From Escherichia coli (GTDB lineage: Bacteria; Pseudomonadota; Gammaproteobacteria; Enterobacterales; Enterobacteriaceae), in assembly GCF_001677475.2 (NCBI RefSeq), contig NZ_CP015229.1: a stretch of DNA of 64,000 nt. One strand, 5' to 3'. Below are positions 60,188 through 63,560 of this stretch, piece by piece. The notes beneath the pieces were generated by a model. That model was not told the DNA's origin, did not search any database, and saw nothing but the letters and a program-made list of their open reading frames with translations. The number at the start of each line of letters is the position of its first letter. Positions within the stretch are counted from its first letter, which is position 1. Made by a program: the position numbers and the translations under genes.

Positions 60188-60641
60188 CTGCTTCCTCCTG
60201 TTTGGTGAGAGATGCCAGATAATCCACCAGTTGCTGCACGCTTTGCGGGTCGTGGCTGTTTAGCTCGAAAATCGGCTCTTCGAAGCCAGTCTCAAGCAAT
60301 AACTTTCGCGTTGCGGCGACGTCAGCATCTGGCATGTCCGTTTTACTGATGACGGCGATTTGCCGTTTGCTGACGCCAATATCCAGCAACCCGGCAGGCA
60401 ACCGACTTTCCGGGTCATTCGCGTCGTGGACATAGATCAGCATGTCCACATCCTGTAGCGTGGTAATTAAGGCGTGATACCAGCGGGGATGGCTAAAATA
60501 TTCACCTGGCGTATCAATATCACCCTTATTATTAAATTCCACAGCCTGCGTTTTTCGCGCGAGGGTATAATCCCCTTGCAACGCATTAAATAACGTTGTC
60601 TTTCCTGCTCCGACAGCACCCACAAACGCAATTCGTTTCAT
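60162..60641 (-). CDS. eutP: P-loop NTPase EutP
   Basis: 159 aa; Walker A GAVGAGKTT; 26-nt overlap with eutQ. Confidence 0.93.
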   Translation of the reverse strand: MKRIAFVGAVGAGKTTLFNALQGDYTLARKTQAVEFNNKGDIDTPGEYFSHPRWYHALITTLQDVDMLIYVHDANDPESRLPAGLLDIGVSKRQIAVISKTDMPDADVAATRKLLLETGFEEPIFELNSHDPQSVQQLVDYLASLTKQEEAGEKTHHSE

Positions 60642-60653
60642 GAATGCCTCGCA

Positions 60654-60989
60654 TTAACTTTTGGTCATTTCACAAAGCGTATAATTTAATAAGCGACCTA
60701 AACCACTGACAGTTTGTGATAACGCTTCTTCTACTGCACCCACCGAGCCATAAATCACCAGCGCGCCGCTAAAACGGTCGAGAAATCCGATATGCACATC
60801 GGCGGCTTTCAGCGCTAAATCACCGGCGATCATCGCCGTTTCGCCGGGAGTTAGCGTCATAATGCCGATTGCACCCGCATCCGGAACGCCGATTTTCTTC
60901 GCCAGTTCCTCGCCGGGATGCGCGATGAGATGCGCCAGTGTGACCTGTTTGCCGGGCACAAATTCTTGAATGATGCGTTCTTTATCCAT
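60654..60989 (-). CDS. eutS: Microcompartment shell protein EutS (permuted BMC domain)
   Basis: ORF track 135 aa; start chosen at [26 protein letters not shown] (111 aa). Confidence 0.9.
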
Positions 60990-61238
60990 GAGTCGCCGCC
61001 TGTGAAAAACTTGCGTGTATCGTGACAATTTTTCGTCAGAGTAAATAACAAAATTCGGCAAGCGCGTTTAAAAGGTGAGGTAGATCACTAAGAATGGAGA
61101 GATATTTACTGTTATGAATAAACTTTCATATGCGACGCATGAATATAAATAAAATAATATCGAGATATTTTATATACTGATTTTTTTATTATTCGCAAAC
61201 TCAGTAATAAGCTTTACTAATATATTGCAGCTAAACTG

Positions 61239-61262
61239 CTTACCCTGAATATTCAGGGTAAG
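61239..61262. other. Perfect 24-bp palindrome between the maeB stop and the eut promoter region (possible maeB terminator hairpin)
   Basis: CTTACCCTGA-ATAT-TCAGGGTAAG, 10-bp arms with a 4-nt loop, in an otherwise AT-rich intergenic region. Confidence 0.45.
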
Positions 61263-61280
61263 CGTGAGAGTTAAAAAAAA

Positions 61281-63560
61281 TTACAACGGTTGGGTTTGCG
61301 CTTCAACCACGGCCAGCGCCACCATGTTGACGATACGACGCACCGATGCGATCGGCGTTAACACGTGAACCGGTTTCGCCACGCCCATCAGCACCGGACC
61401 GACAGTCACACCTTCCGAGCTGGAAACGCGCAGTAAGTTGTAACTAATGCGGGCAGCTTCCATGTTTGGCATTACCAGAATATTGGCGGAACCTTTCAAA
61501 GGGCTGTCCGGCATACGGTCATTGCGAATCGCTTCCACCAGCGCTGCATCGCCGTGCATTTCACCATCAATCATCAGTTCTGGCGCTCGTTCCCTGACCA
61601 GTTCCAGCGCCTGACGCATTTTGCTCGACGACGGGCAGTCAGAAGAACCAAAGTTGGAGTGCGACAACAAAGCAACACGCGGCTCAATACCAAAACGACG
61701 GACAGTTTCTGCCGCCATCAAGGTGATCTCCGCCAGCTCTTCTGCGTCTGGTTCGTCATTGACGTATGTATCGGCAATAAAGGTGTTACCACTCGGCAGC
61801 AGCAGCGCGTTCATGGCACCTGCGGTGTGAACGCCATCGCGATAACCAAAGACATTTTTTACCACGCTAAAGTGTTCATGGTAATCACCCACCGTACCGC
61901 AAATCATTGCATCGGCTTCGCCACGCTGAACCATGATCGCGCCGATCACTGTCGGGTTACTGATCAGCGCACGCTGCGCCTGCTCCTGGGTGACACCACG
62001 ACGCTTCATGATCTGGAAGTATTCGGTCCAGTACTCTTTAAAGCGCGGATCGGATTCGTTATTGACGATCTCAAAATCAACACCCGCTTTGATCTGCAAG
62101 CCCAGTTTCTGAATGCGCATTTCGATCACGTTCGGACGACCGATAAGGATCGGTTTCGCCAGTCCCAGCGTTACCAGTTCCTGAGTGGCATGCAGAACGC
62201 GCGCCTCTTCCCCTTCCGGCAGAACAACGCGCTTCGGCGCTTTGCGAGCCTGGGAGAAAATCGGCTTCATAAACAGGTTGGTTTTGTAAACGAACTCAGT
62301 CAGCTTGTCGATGTAGACGTCGAAATCAGCAATCGGACGCGTCGCCACGCCCGACTCCATCGCCGCTTTCGCGACCGCAGGAGCGATCTTAACGATCAAG
62401 CGCGGATCAAACGGTTTTGGAATGATGTATTCCGGACCAAAGCTCAGATCCTGATCGCCATAAGCTGAAGCCACCACTTCACTCTGTTCCGCATGGGCCA
62501 GTTCTGCAATCGCGCGTACTGCCGCCAGTTTCATCTCTTCGTTGATGGCGGTTGCGCCAACGTCCAGCGCGCCACGGAAGATGAACGGGAAGCAAAGAAC
62601 GTTGTTCACCTGGTTCGGGTAGTCGGAACGGCCGGTACAGATGATGGCATCCGGACGCACTTCTTTCGCCAGCGGCGGCAGAATTTCCGGTTCCGGGTTC
62701 GCCAGCGCCAGGATCATTGGCGCACGGGCCATTTTCTTCACCATTTCCTGGGTCAGCACTTTCGGGCCGGAACAGCCGAGGAAAATATCCGCGCCTTCAA
62801 TCACATCATCGAGGGTACGTTTGCCGTCATCCACTACCGCATATGCGGCTTTGGTTTCCGCCATGTTTGGCTCACGGCCCTGATAGATAACACCTTTTGA
62901 ATCGCAAACCACGATGTTATGTTTTTGCAGCCCCAGCGCCACCAGCAGGTTCATACAAGCGATTGCTGCGGCACCCGCGCCGGAAACCACCATCCGCACG
63001 TCGGAGATGTTTTTCTCCACCACGCGCAAGCCGTTGAGGATGGCGGCAGTGCTGATGATTGCCGTGCCGTGCTGATCGTCGTGGAATACCGGAATATTCA
63101 TCCGCTCGCGCAGTTTCTGTTCAATATAGAAACATTCTGGCGCTTTAATGTCTTCGAGGTTGATTCCGCCGAAGGTCGGTTCGAGCGCAGCGACAACTTC
63201 AATAAATTTGTCCGGGTCGAGTTCATCAACTTCAATGTCAAATACATCAATCCCGGCGAATTTCTTAAACAGAACGCCCTTGCCTTCCATCACCGGTTTG
63301 CCTGCCAGCGCTCCAATGTTGCCTAACCCCAGCACCGCCGTACCGTTAGAGATCACCGCCACCAGGTTACCGCGCGCGGTATATTTGTAGGCTTTTAGCG
63401 GGTCTTTTTCGATTTCAAGACAAGGTGCGGCAACGCCTGGTGAGTAGGCCAGCGCCAGATCGCGCTGCGTTGCCAGAGGCTTGGTTGGAGAAACCTGGAT
63501 TTTCCCTGGAACTGGAAATTCATGGAAATCAAGTGCACTTTGTTTTAACTGGTCATCCAT
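61281..63560 (-). CDS. maeB: NADP-dependent malic enzyme (malic enzyme plus PTA-like domain)
   Basis: 759 aa; [44 protein letters not shown]. Confidence 0.97.

Follow-up and report, generated by a model that had tools for sequence, protein, structure and literature searches.

The perfect palindrome between maeB and the eut operon of Escherichia coli is best explained as the DNA template of a stem-loop with which the maeB mRNA ends. We read it as an intrinsic terminator with a weakened U-tract, and give this reading a probability of about 0.78. The hairpin determines the maeB 3' end under either termination or trimming. We infer that release is factor independent, rather than that longer transcripts are trimmed back to the hairpin; for this reason, and because the U-tract feature fails, the site is filed as "terminator / 3'-end hairpin of maeB" and not as a proven canonical intrinsic terminator. 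The transcript end is already known and not new, since the site is listed in two public 3'-end catalogues as a maeB transcript end.

The window, that is, the whole 64-kb stretch of DNA that was analyzed, carries the following features around the palindrome:

61281..63560, minus strand: maeB coding sequence, 759 aa, NADP-dependent malic enzyme (ORF list, translation, C-terminal tblastn and RefSeq annotation of matching E. coli loci)
61281-61283, minus strand: maeB stop codon, TAA
61264..61280, minus strand: 17-nt 3'UTR leader from the maeB stop to the stem, UUUUUUUUAACUCUCAC (sequence and fold)
61238..61263, minus strand: hairpin, coextensive with the 26-bp perfect palindrome (sequence and folding; the TRS supplement prints the same fold)
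61263-61253, 61252-61249 and 61248-61238, minus strand: 5' arm GCUUACCCUGA, loop AUAU and 3' arm UCAGGGUAAGC of the hairpin
61229..61237, minus strand: degenerate U-tract and release region, AGUUUAGCU (published K-12 3' ends)
61094..61228, minus strand: AT-rich spacer, 135 bp, Escherichia-specific (locus comparison)
60990..61093, minus strand: eut control block, conserved across genera, upstream of eutS and separate from the hairpin element
61075-61088, minus strand: CRP-like dyad GTGATCTACCTCAC that opens the eut control block (TGTGA-N6-TCACA consensus)
60654..60989, minus strand: eutS (ORF list and RefSeq annotation of near-identical E. coli loci)

The initial annotation had described a perfect 24-bp inverted repeat, CTTACCCTGAATATTCAGGGTAAG at 61239-61262. 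The repeat is indeed exact, and its length was slightly understated: with one more base on each side, the full perfect dyad comprises 26 bp (GCTTACCCTGAATATTCAGGGTAAGC, 61238-61263). It exceeds all other perfect palindromes in the window, the next longest being 16 bp. When the window was shuffled 300 times under a first-order Markov model, a perfect palindrome of at least 26 bp was seen once and one of at least 24 bp three times, which bears out the claim that such a repeat is rare by chance. The flanking genes had been named correctly, and the site does lie just past the maeB stop codon, with a gap of 17 nt. As maeB and eutS are co-oriented, the palindrome falls within the maeB 3' UTR, 248 bp upstream of the eutS start codon. 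Of 5426 complete E. coli genomes, 5422 contain the surrounding 381-bp region, with 90-99% identity.

On the maeB-sense RNA the sequence reads UAA-UUUUUUUU-AACUCUCAC-(GCUUACCCUGA-AUAU-UCAGGGUAAGC)-AGUUUAGCUGCAAUAUAUU, with the hairpin in parentheses. The stem of 11-12 bp, closed by the 4-nt AUAU loop, contains 6 G-C pairs (about 55% G-C), has a folding energy of about -18 to -19.5 kcal/mol and begins 17 nt past the maeB stop on the sense strand, as is expected of a terminator stem-loop. Folded within a 91-nt context, it has a z-score of -4.1 in comparison to shuffled sequences. The 9-nt tail behind the stem, AGUUUAGCU, contains 4 U and is not the U-rich tract of an intrinsic terminator, and its TransTermHP-style score is -2.27 here versus -5.3 to -5.9 in canonical orthologues. 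A run of eight U is present upstream of the stem and is therefore unusable as a terminator U-tract on either strand. The earlier remark that the U-tract is poorly placed was thus correct. A consensus terminator scan did not call the hairpin site, which we attribute to the weak U-tract.

Published transcript ends of E. coli K-12 coincide with the release region. A lack of transcript ends at the palindrome, which had been named among the grounds for refuting the initial observation, is thus contradicted by the K-12 data. From the maeB stop through the hairpin and its tail the window is identical to K-12, so that MG1655 coordinates map onto it by subtracting 2514817 (anchor, 61281 = 2576098; the maeB coding sequence at 2576098-2578377 corresponds to 61281-63560). 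The K-12 3' ends at 2576046, 2576048, 2576049 and 2576050 correspond to positions 61229, 61231, 61232 and 61233 of the window. They lie 5-9 nt past the stem (+5 to +9), in line with the approximately 7-9 nt expected for in vivo 3' ends at a terminator. The TRS study reports a "Primary" maeB 3' terminus at 2576046-2576055, with 2576046 or 2576048 as the dominant position (Signal 1.0, rank 34 among all tested positions, adjusted p = 0, three LB libraries). The fold drawn in its table for UUUUUUUAACUCUCACGCUUACCCUGAAUAUUCAGGGUAAGCAGUUUAGCUG is this very hairpin, with an energy of -19.5 kcal/mol, and the maeB 3' UTR is listed as 53 nt with no outlier flag (PMC10687069), so that there is no sign of a 3'UTR-derived sRNA.

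In an independent dataset, obtained by SMRT-Cappable-seq, full-length transcripts that begin at three maeB start sites terminate at 2576049/2576050 (PMC6131387). Reads ending at the site, reading through it and ending within 50 bp downstream number 11/0/12 in the M9 sheet of this dataset, and 37/3/2 and 21/4/7 in a later sheet, presumably of rich medium; read-through at the maeB site is about 0-13%. Also recorded in this study, as a "novel" operon variant, is a rare read-through transcript that covers maeB, eutS and eutP (b2463, b2462, b2461; MG1655 2576049-2578531). Such a transcript implies low-level, EutR-independent transcription of eutS and eutP from the maeB promoter. Neither the TERMITe supplementary tables examined nor the curated Term-seq list of Adams et al. 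2021 has an entry for the maeB hairpin site, and we came across no in vitro assay of termination there.

Hairpins at the same position are found at the orthologous maeB 3' ends. A scan for EutS in one genome per species yielded 63 loci, 28 of them with maeB directly upstream; with four E. coli sequences added, the comparison covered 32 maeB 3' ends. Every one of them has a hairpin, of -15.5 to -20.8 kcal/mol, that starts 14-20 nt past the stop codon. Textbook GC-rich terminators, with the stem GGCGCGGG-loop-CCCGCGCC or a similar one and a U-tract behind it (most often UUUUUAUUU), are seen in Citrobacter, the Klebsiella oxytoca group, Pseudocitrobacter and Yokenella. Tail scores of these orthologues are -5.0 to -5.9 where eutS directly follows, and -3.7 in Yokenella, where part of the U-run is counted in the stem. 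The U-tract of the terminator nearly abuts the conserved eut control block in Citrobacter and most Klebsiella. The stem sequence of Escherichia differs from those of the other genera, while the position and strength of the hairpin are equal; across Escherichia the hairpin is fixed at 17 nt past the maeB stop. In a cross-genus MAFFT alignment the Escherichia stems could not be aligned with those of other genera. Therefore, no covariation statistic is given, and we relied on hairpin finding in each sequence and on sense/antisense folding instead. The U-tract decays along a gradient within Escherichia, from AUUUUUAUAUU (E. whittamii, E1V33) through GUUUUAUUG (MOD1-EC7003) and GUUUGGCUG (many E. 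coli) to AGUUUAGCUG (K-12 and the window).

Several loci showed further changes behind maeB. The first hairpin after maeB in Klebsiella pneumoniae ATCC 13883 (CGCGCGGA...UCCGCGCG; locus L031, 1280-1400) has no U-tract, and a second hairpin (AGGCAGGC...GCCUGCCUUUUU) has one and backs up the decayed proximal terminator. The spacer between maeB and eutS is longer than in sister species in Citrobacter sp. MGH106 (about 125 bp; L028, 1214-1500) and in C. amalonaticus S646 (about 210 bp; L018). In both, the extra DNA starts within the terminator U-tract and truncates it. The MGH106 insert contains an imperfect 16-nt inverted repeat and may be akin to an ERIC/IRU element, which it resembles.

We propose the following course of events for E. 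coli. RNA polymerase, moving along the minus strand, would pass the maeB stop and 17 nt further on transcribe the 5' arm, loop and 3' arm of the palindrome. The nascent RNA would then fold into the hairpin of 11-12 bp (about -18 to -19.5 kcal/mol), and most transcripts would end 5-9 nt beyond it, in the partly U-rich tail. In this way maeB would be monocistronic, and the separately regulated eut promoter, about 150 bp downstream, would be shielded from most maeB read-through. The hairpin would be what an ancestral intrinsic terminator behind maeB has become in Escherichia. As its U-tract has decayed in E. coli proper, a small fraction of polymerases, in the range of a few percent, would read on into eutS-eutP. 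It was reported that the MaeB protein is not co-induced with the Eut proteins on ethanolamine (PMC11334477), and this independent induction fits a terminator that ends the maeB unit.

An alternative that we consider unlikely is that the hairpin only protects a 3' end generated elsewhere. Polymerase would stop downstream in the AT-rich spacer, by means of Rho or by diffuse pausing and release, and 3'-to-5' exonucleases would trim the transcript back to the hairpin. The weak U-tract would be in keeping with such a route, and the general mechanism is described for Rho-dependent transcripts of E. coli (PMC6061677). Moreover, in one condition, the M9 sheet of SMRT-Cappable-seq, the 12 reads ending within 50 bp downstream are about as many as the 11 at the site, which also fits downstream termination plus trimming. 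However, the AT-rich region between the stem and the control block (144 nt, 61094-61237) is not C-rich and G-poor, with 24% GC and a C/G ratio of 1.06. Neither maeB nor eutS is listed in the table of Rho-termination regions that Adams et al. 2021 give in supplementary file 2, although maeB expression was possibly too low there. The ends at +5 to +9 fit intrinsic release equally well, and the orthologues carry canonical intrinsic terminators at the same position. We therefore retain the intrinsic terminator with a weakened U-tract as the preferred reading.

A further idea, to which we assign little weight, concerns the evolution of this terminator. In the E. coli lineage, where the U-tract decayed and the AT-rich spacer was inserted, a strong ancestral terminator could have been weakened so far that its function hinges on accessory factors or growth conditions. 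Read-through, as in the maeB-eutS-eutP transcript of SMRT-Cappable-seq, would then couple maeB to eutS-eutP. If true, such a coupling would provide basal, EutR-independent expression of a shell protein and a kinase.

The DNA beyond the hairpin separates into independent parts. The initial annotation had taken it as certain that the eutS promoter lies in the AT-rich region. This is doubtful, as the spacer is specific to Escherichia, being absent from Citrobacter and most Klebsiella, and a conserved eut block lies beyond it at 60990-61093. This block of about 100 bp is conserved upstream of eutS at every enterobacterial locus compared, whatever the upstream neighbor; Salmonella subspecies, Pluralibacter, Intestinirhabdus and others keep it where eutS follows something other than maeB. 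Judged from this sequence conservation, the control of eut probably resides in this block and not in the AT-rich spacer, and the match to the TGTGA-N6-TCACA consensus suggests a putative CRP site in it. A consensus promoter scan of 60600-61700 found no sigma-70-like promoter. The loci of Salmonella enterica subsp. arizonae and diarizonae (L009 and L010), which have no maeB within 1.5 kb upstream of eutS, also have the conserved eut block.

In strain MSB1_4I (NZ_LR898874.1; L068, 4302-6336) the spacer is replaced by an insert of 1.9 kb, which separates the maeB hairpin from the eut control block and carries a convergent gene for a family-4 glycosyltransferase. The hairpin is still found 17 nt past the maeB stop, and the block beginning GTGATCTACCTCACC is still directly upstream of eutS. 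From this insert, and from the conservation of the block at loci without maeB, we distinguish three modules: maeB with its hairpin, a variable spacer, and the eut control block with eutS. The palindrome belongs to the maeB module. The same strain also has an IS1 element inserted between eutS and eutP.

These observations bear on whether the palindrome acts as DNA, namely as an operator at which a dimeric transcription factor would control eut or act as a roadblock to read-through from maeB, as had been suggested at first in the form of a regulator insulating eut. We regard this as very improbable. Perfect symmetry over 26 bp is rare by chance, and the site lies between two differently regulated units, both of which would suit an operator. 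A genomic SELEX peak of the sigma S RNA polymerase holoenzyme was described in the eutS-maeB spacer (PMC5493296), but the peak is of low resolution, does not single out the palindrome and is more plausibly due to the AT-rich DNA. In contrast, the variation of the stem follows the RNA. Compared to the window, stem variants occur in three Escherichia lineages (MSB1_4I, Escherichia sp. MOD1-EC7003 and E. whittamii/E1V33), and every difference is a transition: the maeB-sense RNA still pairs there, by a U·G wobble, whereas an antisense RNA would have an A·C mismatch. These substitutions break the DNA dyad and keep only the pairing of the sense RNA. The variant hairpins have energies of -17.9 to -22.0 kcal/mol in the sense orientation, whereas the antisense values are -15.1, -8.5 and -16.3 kcal/mol in the three lineages. 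The center of the palindrome varies among lineages as well (AATATT, GTTTATTC, AGTAATTC). The loops of the other Escherichia lineages are non-palindromic, and the center is perfect in the window because the AUAU loop happens to be self-complementary. Together, the sequence variants point to selection on the sense-strand RNA rather than on the DNA dyad, with two or three independent substitutions as modest statistical evidence.

The position of the palindrome does not follow eut either. The hairpin lies about 150 bp from the conserved eut block in E. coli and about 2 kb from it in MSB1_4I, whereas in both it starts 17 nt past the maeB stop. In other genera an unrelated GC-rich terminator stem takes its place while the eut control block is still conserved. 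In E. coli the palindrome is single-copy (about 5400 genomes), and our literature search found no paper that ties a regulator or a named element to the palindrome in the maeB-eutS spacer. A possible resemblance of CTGAATATTCAG to LacI-family (Cra-type) or LexA boxes was rejected, as the half-site spacing appears not to fit. As a DNA palindrome the site is thus broken in other Escherichia and absent as such in other genera. Of the two interpretations in the initial annotation, the maeB terminator hairpin gains support from the K-12 3' ends at 61229-61233, 5-9 nt past the stem, and from the canonical terminators of the orthologues, and the binding site for a dimeric regulator is left unsupported.

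That the palindrome is a copy or remnant of a dispersed extragenic repeat (REP/BIME, ERIC-like) or the end of a mobile element is scarcely credible: the site is intergenic and palindromic, the adjoining spacer is lineage-specific and in other taxa insertions seem to recur at the junction after the maeB hairpin, but the palindrome is present in 5409 of 5426 E. coli genomes at one locus each and not in the multiple copies of a repeat family, the position is fixed relative to maeB across Escherichia, the pattern occurs once in the window with up to three mismatches allowed (0 expected), and an Rfam scan at a permissive E-value gave only chance-level matches, none on the hairpin. The two places per E. 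coli genome reported by BLAST are the same site, as a palindrome is matched on both strands. The search for it elsewhere in the genome, which had been recommended along with the original observation, thus leads to no further locus.

Read as the end of maeB, the hairpin marks where this transcription unit stops and has little importance beyond annotation. It helps to explain how maeB and the co-oriented eut operon can be regulated separately. It also provides an example of terminator turnover, in which position and hairpin strength are conserved across the Enterobacteriaceae while the stem was replaced and the U-tract decayed in one lineage. Finally, it illustrates that perfect DNA palindromes within 3' UTRs are usually RNA hairpins, with a loop that is self-complementary by chance.

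Among known systems, the hairpin-protected 3' ends of Rho-terminated E. coli transcripts (Dar and Sorek 2018, PMC6061677) share with the maeB site a stable hairpin, a poor U-tract and a sharp 3' end. They differ from the maeB site, where we found no evidence of Rho dependence: maeB has no C-rich, rut-like region downstream and no entry in the published table of Rho regions. Intrinsic (Rho-independent) terminators are matched by the stable stem-loop of the sense RNA soon after the stop codon, by 3' ends at +5 to +9, by slight read-through and by the position that the maeB hairpin shares with canonical terminators at orthologous maeB 3' ends. It departs from the canonical form in the degenerate tail and in a stem with only about 55% G-C. 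The closest counterparts are the maeB terminators of Citrobacter, the K. oxytoca group and Pseudocitrobacter. Their stem sequences are unrelated to that of E. coli, they have 7-8 U in the first 9 positions of the tail, and they are not followed by an AT-rich spacer; yet they are alike in the gene they follow, the distance from the stop codon (17-20 nt), the folding energy and the site upstream of the eut block.
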